A program made the position numbers and the translations under genes. Source: Escherichia coli (GTDB lineage Bacteria; Pseudomonadota; Gammaproteobacteria; Enterobacterales; Enterobacteriaceae). From it: 64,000 bases of DNA. The DNA is taken from assembly GCF_003334765.1 (NCBI RefSeq), contig NZ_QOWT01000007.1; one strand, written 5' to 3'. The notes beneath the pieces were generated by a model, which had not been told where the DNA came from, ran no database searches, and saw nothing but the letters and a program-made list of their open reading frames with translations. Positions within the stretch are counted from its first letter, which is position 1. Each line of letters begins with the position of its first letter. Positions 1 to 24,830 of the stretch are shown piece by piece.

Positions 1-273
<273 letters not shown>

Positions 274-294
274 TGGCGCTAACCATGCGAGCGT

Positions 295-392
295 GCCTGA
301 TGCGCTACGCTTATCAGGCCTACGAAAATCTTGCAATGTATTGAATTTTCATGATTTTGTAGGCCGGATAAGGCGTTCACGCCGCATCCGGC
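295..392. repeat. REP/RIP (BIME-like) intergenic element: two inverted REP units flanking an AT-rich core
   Basis: GCCTGATGCGCTACGCTTATCAGGCCTAC ... TTGAATTT ... GTAGGCCGGATAAGGCGTTCACGCCGCATCCGGC; a near-identical architecture recurs at 50402-50480. Confidence 0.55.
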
Positions 393-407
393 AAGAAGCT
401 ATAAGAA

Positions 408-438
408 AAGGGCGGAGATCATCTCCGCCCTTTTTATT
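408..438 (+). terminator. Rho-independent terminator downstream of gyrB
   Basis: GC-rich hairpin GGGCGGAGAT/ATCTCCGCCC followed by TTTTTATTT. Confidence 0.6.
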
Positions 439-512
439 TCTGCAATCCGCAATTATCATCCCGCAAATCTATACTTTTTGGGTCAACACGTAACGCTTTA
501 CAGGTGATTATC

Positions 513-911
513 ATGGGGCTTTTTGATGAAGTTGTCGGTGCCTTTCTGAAAGGCGATGCGGGGAAATATCAGGCTATTTTAAGTTGGGTTGAGGAGCAGG
601 GCGGCATTCAGGTGCTGCTGGAAAAACTGCAAAGTGGCGGCTTAGGGGCCATTCTCTCAACCTGGCTGAGTAATCAACAGGGCAATCAATCGGTTAGTGG
701 CGAGCAACTGGAATCGGCGCTCGGCACAAATGCGGTGTCCGATCTCGGGCAAAAACTTGGCGTGGATACCAGTACAGCTTCCATTTTACTGGCAGAACAA
801 TTGCCGAAGATTATTGATGCGCTCTCACCGCAAGGTGAAGTGTCACCACAAGCCAATAACGATCTGCTTTCCGCAGGCATGGAACTGCTGAAAGGGAAAC
901 TCTTCCGCTAA
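513..911 (+). CDS. yidB: DUF937 family protein YidB
   Basis: ORF 504..911; internal ATG at 513 gives 132 aa starting MGLFDEVVGAF, matching remembered YidB; the track start at 504 is GTG. Confidence 0.85.
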   Translation: MGLFDEVVGAFLKGDAGKYQAILSWVEEQGGIQVLLEKLQSGGLGAILSTWLSNQQGNQSVSGEQLESALGTNAVSDLGQKLGVDTSTASILLAEQLPKIIDALSPQGEVSPQANNDLLSAGMELLKGKLFR

Positions 912-1025
912 GCAAAAAGGGAGCACGCAACGCGCGTTGCATCCCCCTTTTCCCTCGGGTGTTGTACTGATTTTTGAGCGGAATCGCGTTAGCATGGGTC
1001 AGGAACCAATCTACCTGGGGAACTC

Positions 1026-1838
1026 ATGGCTATTAAACTCATTGCTATCGATATGGATGGCACCCTTCTGCTGCCCGATCACACCATTTCACCCGCCGTT
1101 AAAAATGCGATTGCCGCAGCTCGCGCCCGTGGCGTGAATGTCGTGCTAACGACGGGTCGCCCGTATGCAGGTGTGCACAACTACCTGAAAGAGCTGCATA
1201 TGGAACAGCCGGGCGACTACTGCATTACTTATAACGGCGCGCTGGTACAGAAGGCCGCTGATGGTAGCACCGTGGCGCAAACTGCTCTCAGCTATGACGA
1301 CTATCGTTTCCTGGAAAAACTCTCTCGCGAAGTCGGTTCTCATTTCCACGCCCTGGACCGCACCACGCTGTACACCGCCAACCGTGATATCAGCTACTAC
1401 ACGGTGCATGAATCCTTCGTTGCCACCATTCCGCTGGTGTTCTGCGAAGCGGAGAAAATGGACCCCAATACCCAGTTCCTGAAAGTGATGATGATTGATG
1501 AACCCGCCATCCTCGACCAGGCTATCGCGCGTATTCCGCAGGAAGTGAAAGAGAAATATACCGTGCTGAAAAGTGCGCCGTACTTCCTCGAAATCCTCGA
1601 TAAACGCGTTAACAAAGGTACGGGGGTGAAATCACTGGCCGACGTGTTAGGTATTAAACCGGAAGAAATCATGGCGATTGGCGATCAGGAAAACGATATC
1701 GCAATGATTGAATATGCAGGCGTCGGTGTGGCGATGGATAACGCTATTCCTTCAGTGAAAGAAGTGGCGAACTTTGTCACCAAATCTAACCTTGAAGATG
1801 GCGTGGCGTTTGCTATTGAGAAGTATGTGCTGAATTAA
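1026..1838 (+). CDS. yidA: HAD-superfamily (Cof-type) sugar phosphatase YidA
   Basis: 270-aa ORF with HAD motif I DMDGTLL near the N-terminus and a Cof-like C-terminal motif GDQENDIAM. Confidence 0.9.
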   Translation: MAIKLIAIDMDGTLLLPDHTISPAVKNAIAAARARGVNVVLTTGRPYAGVHNYLKELHMEQPGDYCITYNGALVQKAADGSTVAQTALSYDDYRFLEKLSREVGSHFHALDRTTLYTANRDISYYTVHESFVATIPLVFCEAEKMDPNTQFLKVMMIDEPAILDQAIARIPQEVKEKYTVLKSAPYFLEILDKRVNKGTGVKSLADVLGIKPEEIMAIGDQENDIAMIEYAGVGVAMDNAIPSVKEVANFVTKSNLEDGVAFAIEKYVLN

Positions 1839-1844
1839 TCTGTG

Positions 1845-1876
1845 GGCGGGCAAACAGCATAAACGCGTTTGCCCGC
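1845..1876. terminator. Bidirectional hairpin between convergent yidA and yidX
   Basis: GGGCGGGCAAAC ... GTTTGCCCGC inverted repeat in the 45-bp gap between the two stop codons. Confidence 0.5.
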
Positions 1877-1883
1877 TTACTGA

Positions 1884-2540
1884 TTATTGGTTTACTGCAT
1901 ATACAACCAGAAATTGCAGCGGTGCAGTAATGATGTCCAGCGTAACAGTCACTGGCAGTAATGCTGCGGAAACACCATCCGGAATGCCTCTGGGTGAATA
2001 GTATTCATAAAATCGCACTTTAAATGGATGGTAGAACGCCATCACCTTTGAGTAATCCATGTTTTTATTTTTCTCATGGATTGTGCCTTTTAGGTTTTCC
2101 AGTGACCTGGTACAGTGTTGAACACCACAGGCAAAACCATAATGCGTTGCCAGTGCCTTTTCTTCTTCGTTATTCCAGTAGTAGTAAAGCGATATTGTGC
2201 CGGTAAATTTCTTTTTCCCCGCATTTAAAACAAATCTTGCGTCATCGGCAACCTGAATATTGTGCCGGTTAAGTGCTGGATCATTGAGCATCTTAACGAT
2301 GTCATCGGCACCATCAGTGATAAGGTAATCCAGCGATTCCCCTACAAAAACATAGCCTTTTGTTCCATTACTATCTTTTGCCTGCGATAGCCCAGTGATG
2401 GTGTCTGACTGCGATTGATACTTTCCTGAACTACCCTTTGCGGTATGGGAAACCAGAGCATACGAGATACAGCCTGAAAGCATCAGCGCCAGTGGGAATA
2501 AACCGGCAGCCTTAAAAAATCCCTTAAAATTCAACTTCAT
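1884..2540 (-). CDS. yidX: Lipoprotein YidX
   Basis: Start moved to the internal ATG giving [24 protein letters not shown] (signal peptide plus lipobox LSGC); 218 aa. Confidence 0.75.
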
Positions 2541-2677
2541 GATTAATCCTTTAAACGAGTAGCTAAGCCGTTGAAAGCATACTCTTCTTTCCCTCCTGTT
2601 TAGCGCCTGATATCCCTTTTCAGATTTCTGCCCGACGCATGTCATTTTTTTATGCATTGTTCTTTTTGTGATCTAAA

Positions 2678-2753
2678 TTGTAGTACAACAATATAAGTTT
2701 GTACTACATTACACGCACGGCAAACGCGAACGTCATCACGCTGGTACTACAAA
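2678..2753. promoter_or_regulatory. Three GTA(G/C)TACA palindromic repeats in the dgo promoter region; candidate DgoR (GntR-family) operators
   Basis: TTGTAGTACAACA (2678-2690), TTTGTACTACATT (2698-2710) and CTGGTACTACAAA (2741-2753), 65-140 bp upstream of the dgoR start. Confidence 0.5.
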
Positions 2754-2817
2754 GTTGCCGCGTTATGCATCGATCGGGGTAAAGTAGAGAAGAACATACA
2801 GAGCACAAGGACTCTCC

Positions 2818-3507
2818 ATGACTCTCAATAAAACCGATCGCATTGTCATTACGCTGGGTAAACAGATCGTTCACGGCAAATACGTGCCAGGCTCGCCGCT
2901 TCCGGCTGAGGCGGAACTCTGTGAGGAGTTTGCAACCTCGCGCAACATCATCCGTGAGGTGTTCCGTTCGCTGATGGCGAAGCGGCTGATTGAAATGAAA
3001 CGTTATCGCGGGGCGTTTGTGGCACCGCGTAACCAGTGGAATTACCTCGACACTGACGTACTGCAATGGGTGCTGGAAAATGACTACGACCCACGGCTTA
3101 TCAGTGCCATGAGCGAAGTGCGAAATCTGGTGGAACCGGCGATTGCCCGTTGGGCAGCAGAGCGCGCGACTTCCAGCGATCTGGCGCAGATTGAATCGGC
3201 GCTGAACGAGATGATTGCCAACAATCAGGACCGCGAAGCGTTTAACGAAGCGGATATTCGCTACCACGAGGCGGTGCTGCAGTCGGTGCATAACCCGGTG
3301 TTACAGCAACTTAGCATTGCGATCAGTTCGCTGCAGCGGGCGGTTTTTGAACGAACCTGGATGGGCGATGAGGCCAACATGCCGCAAACGCTCCAGGAAC
3401 ATAAGGCGCTGTTCGATGCGATACGACATCAGGACGGCGATGCGGCAGAGCAGGCGGCGCTTACCATGATCGCCAGCTCGACACGAAGGTTAAAGGAAAT
3501 CACATGA
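2818..3507 (+). CDS. dgoR: GntR/FadR-family transcriptional repressor of the D-galactonate operon
   Basis: 229-aa ORF with an N-terminal winged-HTH and FadR-like C-domain; first gene of the dgoRKADT cluster. Confidence 0.9.
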   Translation: MTLNKTDRIVITLGKQIVHGKYVPGSPLPAEAELCEEFATSRNIIREVFRSLMAKRLIEMKRYRGAFVAPRNQWNYLDTDVLQWVLENDYDPRLISAMSEVRNLVEPAIARWAAERATSSDLAQIESALNEMIANNQDREAFNEADIRYHEAVLQSVHNPVLQQLSIAISSLQRAVFERTWMGDEANMPQTLQEHKALFDAIRHQDGDAAEQAALTMIASSTRRLKEIT

Positions 3508-8668: not shown

Positions 8669-9916
8669 ATGGCGGGACCCGTTTTGTATCAGGACCGCGC
8701 CATGAAACAGATAACCTTTGCTCCCCGTAATCACCTGCTCACCAATACCAATACCTGGACGCCCGACAGCCAGTGGCTGGTATTTGACGTGCGTCCTTCT
8801 GGCGCGTCGTTTACCGGCGAGACCATTGAGCGTGTGAATATCCATACCGGCGAGGTCGAGGTTATCTATCGCGCGTCACAGGGCGCACACGTCGGCGTGG
8901 TGACCGTTCATCCGAAGTCAGAGAAATATGTTTTCATCCACGGCCCGGAAAATCCTGATGAAACATGGCATTACGACTTCCATCATCGGCGCGGAGTGAT
9001 TGTTGAAGGCGGCAAGATGAGTAACCTTGATGCGATGGATATTACCGCGCCGTATACGCCAGGAGTGCTGCGCGGCGGCAGCCATGTGCATGTCTTTAGC
9101 CCGAACGGTGAAAGGGTGAGCTTTACCTATAACGATCATGTAATGCATGAACTCGATCCGGCGCTGGATTTGCGAAACGTCGGTGTTGCTGCGCCGTTTG
9201 GCCCGGTCAACGTACAAAAGCAGCATCCGCGTGAATACAGCGGTAGCCACTGGTGCGTGCTGGTGAGCAAAACCACGCCCACGCCACAGCCTGGCAGTGA
9301 TGAAATCAATCGTGCTTATGAAGAAGGATGGGTAGGAAATCACGCGCTGGCATTTATTGGCGACACACTTTCGCCAAAGGGCGAGAAAGTGCCGGAGCTG
9401 TTTATCGTTGAGTTACCGCAAGATGAAGCTGGCTGGAAAGCGGCAGGTGATGCGCCGTTAAGCGGAACGGAAACAACCCTGCCCGCGCCACCGCGTGGCG
9501 TCGTGCAGCGACGTTTAACCTTTACCCACCATCGGGCTTATCCGGGGTTAGTCAACGTCCCGCGCCACTGGGTGCGCTGTAATCCGCAGGGTACACAAAT
9601 CGCGTTTTTAATGCGAGATGATAACGGCATTGTGCAACTGTGGCTTATCTCGCCACAGGGCGGCGAGCCGCGCCAGTTAACCCATAACAAAACGGATATT
9701 CAGTCTGCATTTAACTGGCATCCGTCAGGAGAATGGTTGGGCTTTGTGCTGGATAATCGAATTGCTTGTGCCCATGCGCAAAGCGGCGAGGTTGAGTATT
9801 TAACCGAACACCACGCCAATTCACCTTCTGCGGACGCCGTGGTCTTCTCGCCGGATGGTCAGTGGCTGGCGTGGATGGAAGGCGGCCAGCTGTGGATCAC
9901 CGAAACTGATCGCTAA
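8669..9916 (+). CDS. yidR: Uncharacterized protein YidR (DUF3748, beta-propeller-like)
   Basis: 415 aa from the second ATG; sequence recognised as YidR. Confidence 0.75.
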   Translation: MAGPVLYQDRAMKQITFAPRNHLLTNTNTWTPDSQWLVFDVRPSGASFTGETIERVNIHTGEVEVIYRASQGAHVGVVTVHPKSEKYVFIHGPENPDETWHYDFHHRRGVIVEGGKMSNLDAMDITAPYTPGVLRGGSHVHVFSPNGERVSFTYNDHVMHELDPALDLRNVGVAAPFGPVNVQKQHPREYSGSHWCVLVSKTTPTPQPGSDEINRAYEEGWVGNHALAFIGDTLSPKGEKVPELFIVELPQDEAGWKAAGDAPLSGTETTLPAPPRGVVQRRLTFTHHRAYPGLVNVPRHWVRCNPQGTQIAFLMRDDNGIVQLWLISPQGGEPRQLTHNKTDIQSAFNWHPSGEWLGFVLDNRIACAHAQSGEVEYLTEHHANSPSADAVVFSPDGQWLAWMEGGQLWITETDR

Positions 9917-14374: not shown

Positions 14375-17695
<3,321 letters not shown>

Positions 17696-17861
17696 TTTAA
17701 TATCCCTCCGGCGAATTATGCTCACAACCTGAACTTAACAGAAAACAATCCGTTCAGGGATACGACGTTTGTATTTTAAGAATCTGACTGCCTGACCCGA
17801 CGCATTTTACCTCTCCCTATATTCATGCGTCCGGGACATAAACATAAATAAGGGCTATGAG

Positions 17862-19814
17862 ATGAATTCGTTACAAATCTTGAGTTTTGTCGGTTTTACG
17901 CTGCTGGTGGCGGTGATCACCTGGTGGAAGGTCCGCAAAACAGATACCGGATCGCAACAAGGCTATTTTCTTGCCGGACGTTCACTAAAAGCGCCGGTTA
18001 TTGCCGCTTCGTTAATGCTAACCAACCTTTCCACGGAACAACTGGTCGGCCTTTCCGGGCAGGCCTACAAAAGCGGCATGTCGGTGATGGGCTGGGAAGT
18101 GACTTCAGCGGTGACGCTGATCTTCCTCGCGCTAATCTTTTTACCGCGCTATCTGAAGCGCGGCATTGCCACCATCCCCGATTTTCTGGAGGAACGTTAT
18201 GATAAAACGACGCGTATTATCATCGACTTCTGCTTCCTAATTGCCACCGGCGTCTGCTTTCTGCCGATTGTTCTCTACTCCGGCGCGTTGGCGCTCAACA
18301 GCCTGTTTCACGTCGGGGAATCGCTACAGATTTCTCACGGTGCGGCTATCTGGCTACTGGTAATTTTGCTTGGTCTGGCGGGAATTTTGTATGCGGTGAT
18401 CGGCGGACTGCGCGCAATGGCAGTGGCGGACTCCATCAACGGTATTGGGCTGGTTATCGGCGGGTTGATGGTGCCGGTATTTGGCCTGATCGCGATGGGC
18501 AAGGGCAGCTTTATGCAGGGCATTGAGCAACTCACCACCGTTCACGCCGAGAAATTAAACTCAATCGGTGGCCCGACCGATCCCTTGCCGATTGGCGCGG
18601 CATTTACCGGTTTGATTCTGGTGAACACCTTTTACTGGTGTACAAATCAGGGCATCGTGCAACGCACGCTGGCGTCAAAAAGCCTGGCGGAAGGGCAAAA
18701 GGGGGCGCTGTTAACGGCGGTGCTGAAAATGCTCGACCCGCTGGTACTGGTGCTGCCAGGGTTGATTGCGTTTCATCTGTATCAGGATTTACCGAAAGCC
18801 GACATGGCCTACCCGACGCTGGTCAATAACGTTCTGCCAGTGCCAATGGTGGGTTTCTTCGGCGCGGTGTTATTTGGTGCGGTGATCAGTACCTTCAACG
18901 GCTTTCTGAATAGCGCCAGTACGTTATTCAGTATGGGTATTTACCGTCGCATCATTAACCAGAATGCCGAGCCGCAGCAGCTGGTCACCGTCGGGCGCAA
19001 ATTTGGTTTCTTTATCGCTATCGTTTCGGTGCTGGTCGCGCCGTGGATCGCCAACGCGCCGCAGGGGCTGTATAGCTGGATGAAACAGCTCAACGGCATT
19101 TACAACGTGCCGCTGGTTACCATCATCATTATGGGCTTTTTCTTCCCGCGCATCCCGGCGCTGGCGGCAAAAGTAGCGATGGGGATTGGCATAATCAGCT
19201 ACATCACCATCAACTATCTGGTGAAGTTCGACTTCCATTTCCTCTATGTGCTGGCCTGTACGTTCTGCATCAACGTGGTCGTGATGCTGGTGATCGGTTT
19301 TATCAAACCGCGCGCCACGCCGTTCACCTTCAAAGATGCGTTTGCGGTGGACATGAAACCGTGGAAAAACGTCAAGATCGCGTCAATTGGCATCCTGTTC
19401 GCGATGATTGGCGTCTATGCCGGGCTGGCTGAATTCGGCGGCTACGGTACGCGCTGGTTAGCGATGATCAGTTATTTCATTGCCGCCGTAGTGATTGTCT
19501 ACCTGATTTTTGACAGCTGGCGGCGGAAGGTATTCGCTTTAATTCCGCCTACACCTGTTCACCGGTTTGTACGCCTGCACGGGCCGGACTATTTACCGGT
19601 ATCTACGCTAACCAGTCCGGCCCGTGGACCAACAACGTCGCGCCAGGCAAAAACATCTCCACTATGGGGCGCTACTTTAAGGATGCCGGCTATCACACCT
19701 GTTACATCGGCAAATGGCATCTCGACGGTCATGACTATTTCGGCACTGGCGAGTGTCCGCCGGAGTGGGACGCTGATTACTGGTTCGATGGGGCGAACTA
19801 TCTTAGCGAACTGA
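17862..19814 (+). CDS. yidK: SSS-family Na+/solute symporter YidK with an aberrant 3' end (reads out of frame into sulfatase DNA)
   Basis: Multi-TM transporter sequence to about codon 550 (...AAVVIVYLIFDSW), then about 100 codons of Pro/Arg/Ser/Thr-rich sequence overlapping the sulfatase gene in another frame; native end probably lost. Confidence 0.7.
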   Translation: MNSLQILSFVGFTLLVAVITWWKVRKTDTGSQQGYFLAGRSLKAPVIAASLMLTNLSTEQLVGLSGQAYKSGMSVMGWEVTSAVTLIFLALIFLPRYLKRGIATIPDFLEERYDKTTRIIIDFCFLIATGVCFLPIVLYSGALALNSLFHVGESLQISHGAAIWLLVILLGLAGILYAVIGGLRAMAVADSINGIGLVIGGLMVPVFGLIAMGKGSFMQGIEQLTTVHAEKLNSIGGPTDPLPIGAAFTGLILVNTFYWCTNQGIVQRTLASKSLAEGQKGALLTAVLKMLDPLVLVLPGLIAFHLYQDLPKADMAYPTLVNNVLPVPMVGFFGAVLFGAVISTFNGFLNSASTLFSMGIYRRIINQNAEPQQLVTVGRKFGFFIAIVSVLVAPWIANAPQGLYSWMKQLNGIYNVPLVTIIIMGFFFPRIPALAAKVAMGIGIISYITINYLVKFDFHFLYVLACTFCINVVVMLVIGFIKPRATPFTFKDAFAVDMKPWKNVKIASIGILFAMIGVYAGLAEFGGYGTRWLAMISYFIAAVVIVYLIFDSWRRKVFALIPPTPVHRFVRLHGPDYLPVSTLTSPARGPTTSRQAKTSPLWGATLRMPAITPVTSANGISTVMTISALASVRRSGTLITGSMGRTILAN

Positions 19815-20908
19815 CGGAAAAAGAGATTAGCCTGTGGCGCAATGGCCTAAACAGCGTCGAAGATTTACAGGCGAACCATATCGACGAAACCTTCACCTGG
19901 GCGCATCGTATCAGCAATCGGGCGGTGGATTTTCTGCAACAGCCTGCGCGCGCAGACGAGCCTTTCCTGATGGTGGTTTCGTATGATGAGCCGCATCACC
20001 CGTTCACCTGTCCGGTGGAGTATTTAGAGAAATACGCTGATTTTTACTACGAGCTGGGCGAGAAAGCACAGGATGACCTGGCTAACAAACCGGAACATCA
20101 CCGCTTATGGGCGCAGGCGATGCCATCGCCAGTCGGTGATGACGGGCTTTATCACCATCCGCTCTATTTTGCCTGTAATGACTTTGTTGATGACCAAATC
20201 GGACGGGTCATCAATGCCTTAACGCCAGAGCAACGTGAAAATACGTGGGTTATTTATACCTCCGATCACGGCGAAATGATGGGCGCACATAAGCTGATCA
20301 GTAAAGGGGCGGCGATGTATGACGACATCACCCGCATTCCGCTGATCATCCGTTCGCCGCAAGGGGAGCGGCGACAGGTCGATACGCCAGTCAGTCATAT
20401 CGATTTACTGCCGACAATGATGGCGCTGGCAGATATTGAAAAACCAGAGATTCTGCCGGGGGAAAATATCCTTGCCGTGAAAGAGCCACGCGGCGTGATG
20501 GTGGAATTTAACCGCTACGAGATTGAGCATGACAGCTTTGGCGGTTTTATTCCGGTGCGTTGCTGGGTGACGGATGACTTTAAACTGGTACTCAACCTCT
20601 TCACCAGTGATGAACTTTACGATCGCCGTAATGACCCAAATGAAATGCATAACCTGATCGATGATATCCGTTTTGCAGACGTTCGCAGCAAAATGCATGA
20701 CGCCTTATTGGATTACATGGACAAAATTCGCGATCCGTTCCGCAGTTACCAATGGAGTCTGCGTCCGTGGCGTAAAGATGCACGGCCGCGCTGGATGGGG
20801 GCGTTTCGTCCACGTCCACAAGATGGCTATTCGCCAGTTGTACGCGACTATGACACCGGCCTACCGACACAAGGGGTGAAGGTGGAGGAGAAAAAACAGA
20901 AGTTCTGA
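19514..20908 (+). pseudogene. yidJ: Cys-type sulfatase YidJ, 5'-truncated (no start codon ahead of the catalytic motif)
   Basis: Sulfatase frame is open only from 19514 (TGA at 19511-13) and begins QLAAEGIRFNSAYTCSPVCTPARAGLFTG (C-x-P-x-R FGly motif); first in-frame ATG is at 19664, downstream of the motif. Confidence 0.7.
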
Positions 20909-20954
20909 CGATAATGCCCGCTGATGATCACCCGGCGGGCATTATTCAGGCTGC

Positions 20955-21404
20955 TTAAACCAGTGAACCGCCGGTCAGGAAGGAAAAGATAAGGAATATC
21001 AGCAAAATGCTGCACACGATGCCGATACCAAAAAGCAAGGTATGGAAAGCCAGCGTCCCGCCGCCAAAAACCAGCGCGCCGCGAATGCCCCAGCGATTTT
21101 CCTTACGCATACCGCCAATAAATGCGCAAAGTAGCGCAGCAATGGCCAGTGCGATACCGCTTTGATTGAGGATTTTATCGACATCTACGTCCTCTTTTTT
21201 CTCCACGGTGGTAATTTTTTCGCCTTTTATTCCGGCGAGAAGACCTCTTTTAATTTCAGCCGTTTTGTCCGCCACGATGCTTTCAAACGTTGGCGGTGGT
21301 GCGGAGAAAGGGCCGAATGAAAAGTGGATAATCCCCATCATTAAAGCGATGGCACCGAACAGCATGCCCAATGAACTGATTTTATTTTGAGCTATGATAC
21401 CCAT
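20955..21404 (-). CDS. yidI: Inner membrane protein YidI
   Basis: 149 aa from MGIIAQNKISSLGMLFGAIALMMGIIHF; several TM segments. Confidence 0.75.
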   Translation of the reverse strand: MGIIAQNKISSLGMLFGAIALMMGIIHFSFGPFSAPPPTFESIVADKTAEIKRGLLAGIKGEKITTVEKKEDVDVDKILNQSGIALAIAALLCAFIGGMRKENRWGIRGALVFGGGTLAFHTLLFGIGIVCSILLIFLIFSFLTGGSLV

Positions 21405-21511
21405 CTGACCTCCTTGTAGCGGATGGCAAAAGCATATCAGGAAACGGGCGGACGAAATTCTTAAAAAAACCGCTAAAGGTAGAGCGTTAGTGAAATTGCA
21501 AAGGAGCAACA

Positions 21512-21859
21512 ATGAAAATTTCCCGCCTCGGAGAAGCGCCTGATTACCGCTTCTCGCTGGCTAATGAGCGTACTTTTCTGGCGTGGATCCGTACTGCACT
21601 AGGATTTCTGGCGGCGGGGGTTGGGCTTGATCAACTTGCGCCAGATTTCGCCACGCCCGTCATTCGCGAACTGCTGGCGTTGTTGTTGTGTCTGTTTTCC
21701 GGCGGGTTAGCGATGTATGGCTACTTGCGCTGGTTACGCAATGAAAAAGCGATGCGTCTGAAAGAGGACCTGCCCTACACCAACAGCTTATTAATCATTA
21801 GCTTAATATTGATGGTCGTGGCGGTGATCGTTATGGGACTGGTGTTGTATGCCGGATAG
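21512..21859 (+). CDS. yidH: Inner membrane protein YidH (DUF202)
   Basis: 115-aa ORF with hydrophobic segments. Confidence 0.8.
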   Translation: MKISRLGEAPDYRFSLANERTFLAWIRTALGFLAAGVGLDQLAPDFATPVIRELLALLLCLFSGGLAMYGYLRWLRNEKAMRLKEDLPYTNSLLIISLILMVVAVIVMGLVLYAG

Positions 21860-22211
21860 CCGCAAAGCCAGACGCATTGCCGACCCAGGACTGCAGCCGG
21901 AGCGCACATCACTGGCGTGGTTTCGTACCATGCTGGGCTACGGCGCGTTGATGGCGTTGGCTATCAAACACAACTGGCACCAGGCGGGCATGTTATTCTG
22001 GATTTCGATTGGCATTCTCGCCATCGTGGCGCTGATCCTCTGGCACTACACCCGTAATCGCAATTTAATGGATGTCACGAATAGCGATTTTTCCCAATTT
22101 CACGTAGTCCGTGACAAATTTTTGATCTCCCTCGCGGTGTTATCTCTCGCAATACTGTTTGCTGTAACGCATATACATCAACTTATCGTATTTATTGAGA
22201 GAGTCGCATGA
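21849..22211 (+). CDS. yidG: Inner membrane protein YidG
   Basis: 120-aa ORF; overlaps the yidH 3' end by 11 nt; membrane segments. Confidence 0.8.
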   Translation: MPDSRKARRIADPGLQPERTSLAWFRTMLGYGALMALAIKHNWHQAGMLFWISIGILAIVALILWHYTRNRNLMDVTNSDFSQFHVVRDKFLISLAVLSLAILFAVTHIHQLIVFIERVA

Positions 22212-22712: not shown

Positions 22713-23897
22713 TTAAACGGGCTGCCCCTGATGCGACATCCGCGTCGCCAGCGGCAGCCAGCACAGCACGATCAACAATCCCATTAAGGTCATCAACAAC
22801 CCCAGGCTGCCCTGACCGGTTTGCGGCAACATCGCAGAGAGCGACGCCAGCACGCCGGAACCAATGTTTTGCAGACCGCCGACCAGCGCGCCAGCCGTGC
22901 CCGCCAGGAAGGGGAACGGCTCCATCGCGCCGCTGGTCGCCAGCGGAAACAGCATCCCGGCACCGAAAAAGAACAGCGCGGCGGGAACGAGCAGCGTCCA
23001 GACATTCATCACGCCAAACCAGTCGGGGATCCACATCAGCAAGCCAGCCAGCAGGCAGCAGATAACCGACTGCCACATTAACGTGGAGAAGCGTTTATTG
23101 GGACGTCCGGCAAACCATGCGCCAAAAAACGCTGCCGGAATCGGCAGAATAAACAAAATACTGACCGTCATACTGCTCAGCCCTAACACCGCGCCCATCA
23201 GCACGCCGGAGCAGGCTTCAAAGGCGGCAATCCCGGCCAGACCGCCAATCAGCATCAGCAAATAACAGTTAAAACCGCTGTTACCGAAAAGCGTTTTATA
23301 ACTGGTAAGCAGGCGCGTGCGCGGTGCATCGACCGGACGCGTTTCCGGCATCCAGCGGGCCATACTGAAGGTCACACCAGCACAAAGAACCAACAAAAAG
23401 AGATAACAGGCGCGCCAGTTCCACATCGTATCCAGCAGACCGCCGATTAGCGGTGCGAGCAACGGACTGACGAGAATCCCCATGTTTAACAGGCTGTTAG
23501 CATGGCGCAACTGTGTCCGTTCATATAAGTCTCGCGGTAAAGTACGCGCCATTACGCCGCCAACGCCGGTGCCCATCCCCTGCATCGCGCTGGCGGCAAT
23601 CAACACCGTCAAACTGGAGGTCGTGACCGCGACCAGCGTTGCCAGCATAAAAATGGACATTCCGACGAGGATCACCGGTCGGCGGCCCACGCGGTCGGAA
23701 ATCGGGCCATAAAACAGCTGTGAGACACCGTAAGTCAGCAGATAAGCGCCCATTACGCTCTGCACCGCCCCTTCACGGACGTTGAGATCGCGCGCCATAT
23801 CGGCAATAGCTGGAATATAAATGGTTTGCGCCATCTGACCGACGGCCACGAGTAATACCAACATCAATAACAAATTGACGTTTCTTTGCCTTTTCAT
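22713..23897 (-). CDS. emrD: Multidrug efflux MFS transporter EmrD
   Basis: 394 aa from MKRQRNVNLLLMLVLLVAVGQMAQTIYIPAIADMARDLNV; the track start is an upstream GTG. Confidence 0.9.
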   Translation of the reverse strand: MKRQRNVNLLLMLVLLVAVGQMAQTIYIPAIADMARDLNVREGAVQSVMGAYLLTYGVSQLFYGPISDRVGRRPVILVGMSIFMLATLVAVTTSSLTVLIAASAMQGMGTGVGGVMARTLPRDLYERTQLRHANSLLNMGILVSPLLAPLIGGLLDTMWNWRACYLFLLVLCAGVTFSMARWMPETRPVDAPRTRLLTSYKTLFGNSGFNCYLLMLIGGLAGIAAFEACSGVLMGAVLGLSSMTVSILFILPIPAAFFGAWFAGRPNKRFSTLMWQSVICCLLAGLLMWIPDWFGVMNVWTLLVPAALFFFGAGMLFPLATSGAMEPFPFLAGTAGALVGGLQNIGSGVLASLSAMLPQTGQGSLGLLMTLMGLLIVLCWLPLATRMSHQGQPV

Positions 23898-24701: not shown

Positions 24702-24830
24702 GTTATCTGCAATTCAGTACAAAACGTGATCAACCCCTCAATTTTCCCTTGCTGAAAAATTTTCCATTGTCTCCCCTGTAAAGCTGTGCTTGTATAAATA
24801 TTGTTAAACACAAAACCAACAAGGTCCCCA

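Follow-up and report, generated by a model that had tools for sequence, protein, structure and literature searches.

A 159-bp deletion is the best explanation for the disrupted yidK-yidJ boundary in a lineage of Escherichia coli

We have analysed a stretch of 64,000 nucleotides from the Escherichia coli contig NZ_QOWT01000007.1 (hereafter the window), and the best explanation for the arrangement found at its yidK-yidJ boundary, to which we assign a probability of about 0.93, is that the yidK-yidJ operon is present in the window as an allele with a 159-bp deletion. These 159 bp are absent from the window and present in K-12 MG1655, in BL21 and in about 5,060 further complete E. coli genomes. 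The locus is that of the intact operon of K-12 MG1655 (b3679, a putative SSS transporter, and b3678, a putative sulfatase/phosphatase), with the same neighbours (yidL, the glv genes, yidI-yidF and emrD), and its remaining codons are the same as in WP_001087145.1 and WP_000828527.1, two intact alleles that are common. Compared to K-12 MG1655, the window lacks the 159 bp and with them the stop codon of yidK, the ATGA at which the two genes are coupled and codons 1-34 of yidJ. The features of the region, in window coordinates, are the following:

17862..19523, + strand: retained part of yidK, codons 1-554, a 554-aa prefix identical to intact YidK (WP_001087145.1 type)
19524..19814, + strand: new tail of the yidK ORF, 96 codons and a stop, out of frame over the beginning of the yidJ remnant
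19517..20908, + strand: yidJ remnant, codons 35-497 and the stop, 100% identical to intact YidJ (0 differences)
19568..19582, + strand: CTPAR motif, Cys52-Arg56 in intact numbering, the formylglycine active site as aligned with solved S1 sulfatases
19664..20908, + strand: 414-aa ORF from M84 (intact YidJ numbering), the first canonical start in the sulfatase frame
19517..19524, + strand: deletion junction, a single 8-bp copy of CTGGCGGC, located by alignment to intact genomes and by in-silico deletion
19161..19168, + strand: a third copy of CTGGCGGC, lying within yidK and 356 bp upstream of the copy at the junction
16802..17695, - strand: yidL, an AraC-family regulator gene divergent from yidK, intact (WP_001013540.1 in carriers and non-carriers alike)

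Translation of the window gives an ORF of 650 aa on the + strand that begins with an ATG at 17862 and ends with a TAA at 19812-19814. An earlier note, made from this DNA alone, had described this ORF as normal transporter sequence up to about codon 550 followed by about 100 codons rich in Pro, Arg, Ser and Thr, and we have found 554 native codons followed by 96 out-of-frame ones. It had also correctly located the opening of the sulfatase frame, which is closed by a TGA at 19511-19513 and open from 19514, where it reads QLAAEGIRFNSAYTCSPVCTPAR... Between this point and the ATG at 19664 no ATG, GTG or TTG is found in the sulfatase frame, so that the absence of an earlier in-frame start noted there holds, as does the prediction of a 414-aa product, from 19664 to 20908, devoid of the catalytic Cys. 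The lengths that the note had given for the intact proteins are those of K-12 MG1655, in which yidK (1716 nt, 571 aa) and yidJ (1494 nt, 497 aa) overlap by 4 nt.

A 701-bp query spanning the junction was compared to 5,426 complete E. coli genomes and matched 5,115 of them; all the full-query matches that we sampled were split in two pieces, which together extended over about 860 bp where the window has 701 bp. When a BL21 derivative and strain MLI104K2 were aligned to the window, one clean gap flanked by CTGGCGGC was seen; this octamer is present in two copies 159 bp apart in intact genomes and in one copy in the window. In K-12 MG1655 it likewise occurs twice at a spacing of 159 bp, and the intervening 159-bp segment is identical. 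The ancestral copies lie in yidK codons 552-555, near the 3' end of the gene, and in yidJ codons 35-37; the loss of the 159 bp removes the last 17 yidK codons and stop, the ATGA overlap and the first 34 yidJ codons. Furthermore, when positions 19526-19684 were removed in silico from the intact locus of strain BR1220 (L011, with CTGGCGGC at 19518-19525 and 19677-19684), the result was the window sequence from 17000 to 22000 with 0 mismatches, and in this 5-kb comparison neither filler or inserted bases nor remnants of IS or other mobile elements were detected at the junction. The gap of roughly 160 bp that had been predicted for an alignment to K-12 MG1655 is therefore there, at the yidK-yidJ boundary as proposed and 159 bp long, although its junction, which had been placed near 19505-19516, turns out to be the 8-bp repeat copy left at 19517-19524. 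The proposal that yidJ would be inactive and the C-terminal tail of yidK altered is also supported by the alignment with intact genomes. The converse possibility, that the 159 bp are an insertion in the other genomes, was rejected because the segment encodes a sulfatase N-terminus that is conserved in distant solved structures.

The same allele is found well beyond this assembly. With a 60-bp junction-spanning query and an E-value limit that excludes half-matches, the identical junction was recovered in 45 of the 5,426 complete genomes, among them ML35 (NZ_CP025747.1), O157:H16 98-3133 (NZ_CP051001.1), SHP24 (NZ_CP104788.1), NCTC9100 and FORC 064; between the window and the allele in these 45 RefSeq genomes nothing of substance differs. 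The exact 650-aa ORF is present in at least 1,000 public contigs and the exact 414-aa ORF in 798, and both have database entries under ordinary NCBI and UniRef names. The junction in 45 complete genomes and the ORFs on public contigs indicate therefore that the allele is real, heritable, widespread and already in databases. Both genes are already annotated as partial pseudogenes in RefSeq carriers: in each of the eight carriers for which we read the annotation, PGAP describes yidK as 'missing C-terminus' and yidJ as 'missing N-terminus'.

These data also bear on the possibility of an assembly or consensus error, in which the source strain would be intact and the 159 bp would have been dropped by collapse of reads over the 8-bp repeat. 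The probability of this is close to nil: the junction is not unique to one assembly and is shared by 45 independent complete ones from different laboratories, hosts and countries, the mutant ORFs occur on some 800 to more than 1,000 public contigs, and a repeat of 8 bp is much shorter than would be needed for reads to collapse. We have found no positive support for such an error, apart from the fact that the spot can be mis-assembled, as the related MLI104K2 assembly is garbled in the same 159-bp interval. In that assembly (NZ_CP116925.1; about 3410-3478 of locus L001) a homopolymer-like garble, e.g. ATGGGGGGGGGGTTAGGGGGAAACCCCCGAAAAAAAAAAAAAATATTTTTTT, replaces the normal 5' codons of yidJ, which is annotated there as 'frameshifted'. 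Of the 159 bp that the window lacks, the garble coincides with the right half. Over the 701-bp query the sequence on either side of it shows 100% identity to the window, and the garble has the appearance of an artefact of consensus calling or polishing, perhaps in a region that was mixed or poorly covered.

Residues 2-444 of intact YidJ can be aligned with S1 formylglycine sulfatases of solved structure (PDB 9ihk, S1_30A, and 6pt4, an exo-2S-iota-carrageenan sulfatase; E 3e-46 to 4e-44). Like them, YidJ has a C-x-P-x-R motif and an N-terminal Asp that is conserved, and the Pfam Sulfatase domain (PF00884) covers its residues 4-341. The alignment with the solved enzymes begins at residue 2 and includes a conserved N-terminal '...TD'; in YidJ this is the strand 'FVMTD', in which Asp12 is aligned with the N-terminal Asp that is conserved in the solved enzymes. 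In the window this strand is lost, and with it the whole of codons 1-34 (MKRPNFLFVMTDTQATNMVGCYSGKPLNTQNIDS), the ribosome-binding region and the ATG, which in intact genomes overlaps the yidK stop as ATGA. The catalytic Cys52 is still encoded in the DNA, upstream of M84, the first usable start, so the 414-aa product from M84 contains neither Cys52 nor Asp12; with the first canonical start downstream of Cys52, the gene, judging from its sequence, cannot give rise to an active formylglycine sulfatase. Compared to the S1 sulfatases, the window copy is a gene remnant that cannot be translated from a start ahead of the motif and is devoid of the first 34 residues, with neither a complete domain bearing the N-terminal Asp nor a C/S-x-P-x-R motif within a translatable ORF. 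No Shine-Dalgarno-like sequence precedes the ATG at 19664. Rescue from a rare start was considered and rejected, as none of the in-frame codons CTG 19517, ATT 19532, ATC 19601 and ATC 19655 has a properly spaced Shine-Dalgarno sequence and the product would in any case lack residues 1-34. Judged from its sequence, the yidJ of the window is a null allele.

In YidK, residues 1-554 (...VIVYLIFDSWR) are unchanged and include the last hydrophobic membrane helix, and the SSF domain (Pfam PF00474; residues 35-442, E 1.5e-49) is complete. The native tail of 17 residues, HRHDPAVTFTPDGKDSL, and its stop are gone and are replaced by 96 out-of-frame residues, among which there are 14 T, 10 P, 10 S and 9 R; no Pfam domain is found in residues 555-650. 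As a member of the Sodium:solute symporter family the variant keeps the SSF domain and the helices and lacks the native C-terminus and stop. With all helices and the SSF domain kept, membrane insertion and transport may still be possible; alternatively, the long basic, Pro/Ser/Thr-rich tail may destabilise the protein.

One could go further and regard the 650-aa YidK, new tail included, or a fusion of YidK and YidJ arising from ribosomal frameshifting, as a new protein that has been selected. The untouched core of residues 1-554, with all the helices and the SSF domain, and the abundance of the allele in public data would agree with this. However, the tail results simply from reading yidJ in the wrong frame, no domain was matched in it, and both genes are called pseudogenes by PGAP. 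As for the fusion, no canonical slippery heptamer (X XXY YYZ) was noted when the stretch from the junction to the motif was read by eye, and the fused protein would still be devoid of sulfatase residues 1-34. The tail is invariant among carriers, so that comparing them has no power to detect constraint. We consider such a functional remodelling very improbable.

Regarding the origin of the allele, the ancestor would have had yidK (571 codons) and yidJ (497 codons) overlapping by ATGA, with one copy of CTGGCGGC in each. Misalignment of the two direct repeats would then have removed one copy and everything between them, most likely, to judge from the anatomy of the junction, through slipped-strand mispairing during replication. 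Deletions of this kind, which take place between short direct repeats and are RecA-independent, are a classic class of spontaneous mutation in bacteria and have been described at lacI of E. coli. As in those, the 159-bp segment has on both sides a direct repeat that is short and GC-rich, and of which one copy is left, without filler or mobile-element DNA. There is no palindrome or hairpin between the yidK-yidJ repeats that would promote the event: no unusual hairpin was found in the 183-nt interval that spans both of them, and hairpin assistance was rejected because the folding of this interval did not surpass that of shuffled sequences (z = 0.58). The site of the deletion is not obviously special, since the repeat is only 8 bp long and yidK and yidJ together contain 34 pairs of 8-mer repeats within 300 bp.

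It is conceivable that the clustered CTGGCGGC copies form a hotspot at which deletions have arisen repeatedly, so that the 45 carriers would have several origins. There are three copies, at spacings of 356 and 159 bp, and carriers come from diverse hosts and serotypes (e.g., O157:H16 and O2:H16). Moreover, strain APEC-O117H42 (NZ_CP172331.1; 2349-2358 of locus L016) has independently lost exactly 356 bp between the upstream and the junction copies, with a 10-bp microhomology (GCTGGCGGCA), which has truncated its yidK and left yidJ intact; yidL is also frameshifted in this strain. Nevertheless, this deletion is present in only one of the 5,426 complete genomes, and the 515-bp deletion between the outer copies in none of them. 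The carriers themselves also argue against recurrence: the region is present in at least 5,107 genomes, and yet no carrier was seen on a divergent background; the eight that were examined have a near-identical local haplotype in common, and nested derived SNPs are shared among carriers. We consider a recurrent hotspot unlikely, and the broader claim that the clustered repeats switch off yidKJ recurrently across lineages, and/or that the 650-aa YidK is a stable and selected functional variant, very unlikely.

The comparison of haplotypes is consistent instead with one origin. In a 24-kb search (window 8000-32000) SHP24 (NZ_CP104788.1) was a perfect match, and carriers and many intact genomes alike were about 100.0% identical to the window. 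Loci of 40 kb were then compared for five carriers outside the top 60 of this search and for three close intact genomes. The five carriers had been expected to lie on divergent backgrounds, an idea that was rejected as they showed only 5-7 differences from the window over 40 kb (SNPs, with one 1-bp indel). Three other carriers showed 1-2 differences over 8 kb, and the three intact genomes 3-8 SNPs over 40 kb in addition to the deletion. The eight carriers examined and the intact strains NCTC9041, BR1220 and Ecol_AZ155 thus have a common haplotype, no carrier on a divergent haplotype was found among these eight, and intact NCTC9041 would represent essentially the ancestral haplotype. Three carriers have in common the derived SNPs at 24734, 27449, 31086 and 37521, none of which was found when the three intact genomes were compared over 40 kb. 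All this fits a single and fairly recent origin followed by clonal spread, which is unproven because the local SNP diversity is too low for a tree. According to this, the allele would have arisen once on a phylogroup-A-like haplotype and then spread clonally, and it may have persisted with the cryptic yidKJ system being probably dispensable in the carrier lineage.

Two positions distinguish the window itself: its T at 9136 is C in all eight fetched 40-kb loci, and its G at 23529 is A in every fetched genome that covers the site, carriers and non-carriers. Another carrier, NZ_OZ547038.1, matches window 8000-32000 perfectly in two pieces that extend over about 29 kb with a Tn3-family transposase inside, which indicates a Tn3-like insertion of about 5 kb within the interval.

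Other lesions were found at the locus and next to it. In strain 300709 (NZ_CP025903.1) an IS1A element at 748-1445 of locus L015 has split yidK into two pseudogene fragments, an independent disruption, and 311 of the 5,426 complete genomes (about 6%) have no match to the 701-bp yidK-yidJ query, the region being absent or replaced. Together with the 356-bp deletion, these observations are consistent with a locus that is dispensable and decaying. On the other side of yidL, downstream of a PTS gene, the window contains at 15991-16805 (+ strand) a family 4 glycosyl hydrolase gene (a glvG-like 6-phospho-alpha-glucosidase) that is annotated as a frameshifted pseudogene in carriers and in close non-carriers; glvG is also annotated as a pseudogene in K-12, and in the BL21 derivative a longer, intact gene is found.

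In the literature on yidJ, yidK and yidF/sulfatase maturases we have found neither a published description of this deletion allele nor a demonstrated substrate of YidJ. YidJ is named only as a putative sulfatase/phosphatase (PMC7716201), and yidK has been listed among the 'extended-core' genes of E. coli (PMC12595684). What we describe is an ordinary, lineage-specific microhomology deletion, by which a cryptic sulfatase gene has become a pseudogene and the transporter that is its partner has acquired a different tail. Its importance is small beyond correct annotation: yidJ should be regarded as a pseudogene in the carrier lineage, and the 650-aa 'YidK' and 414-aa 'sulfatase' entries of the databases as products of the deletion and not as genuine variants. 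Finally, carriers such as ML35 and O157:H16 98-3133 are natural yidJ nulls, and could be useful controls if the substrate of the sulfatase is ever identified.
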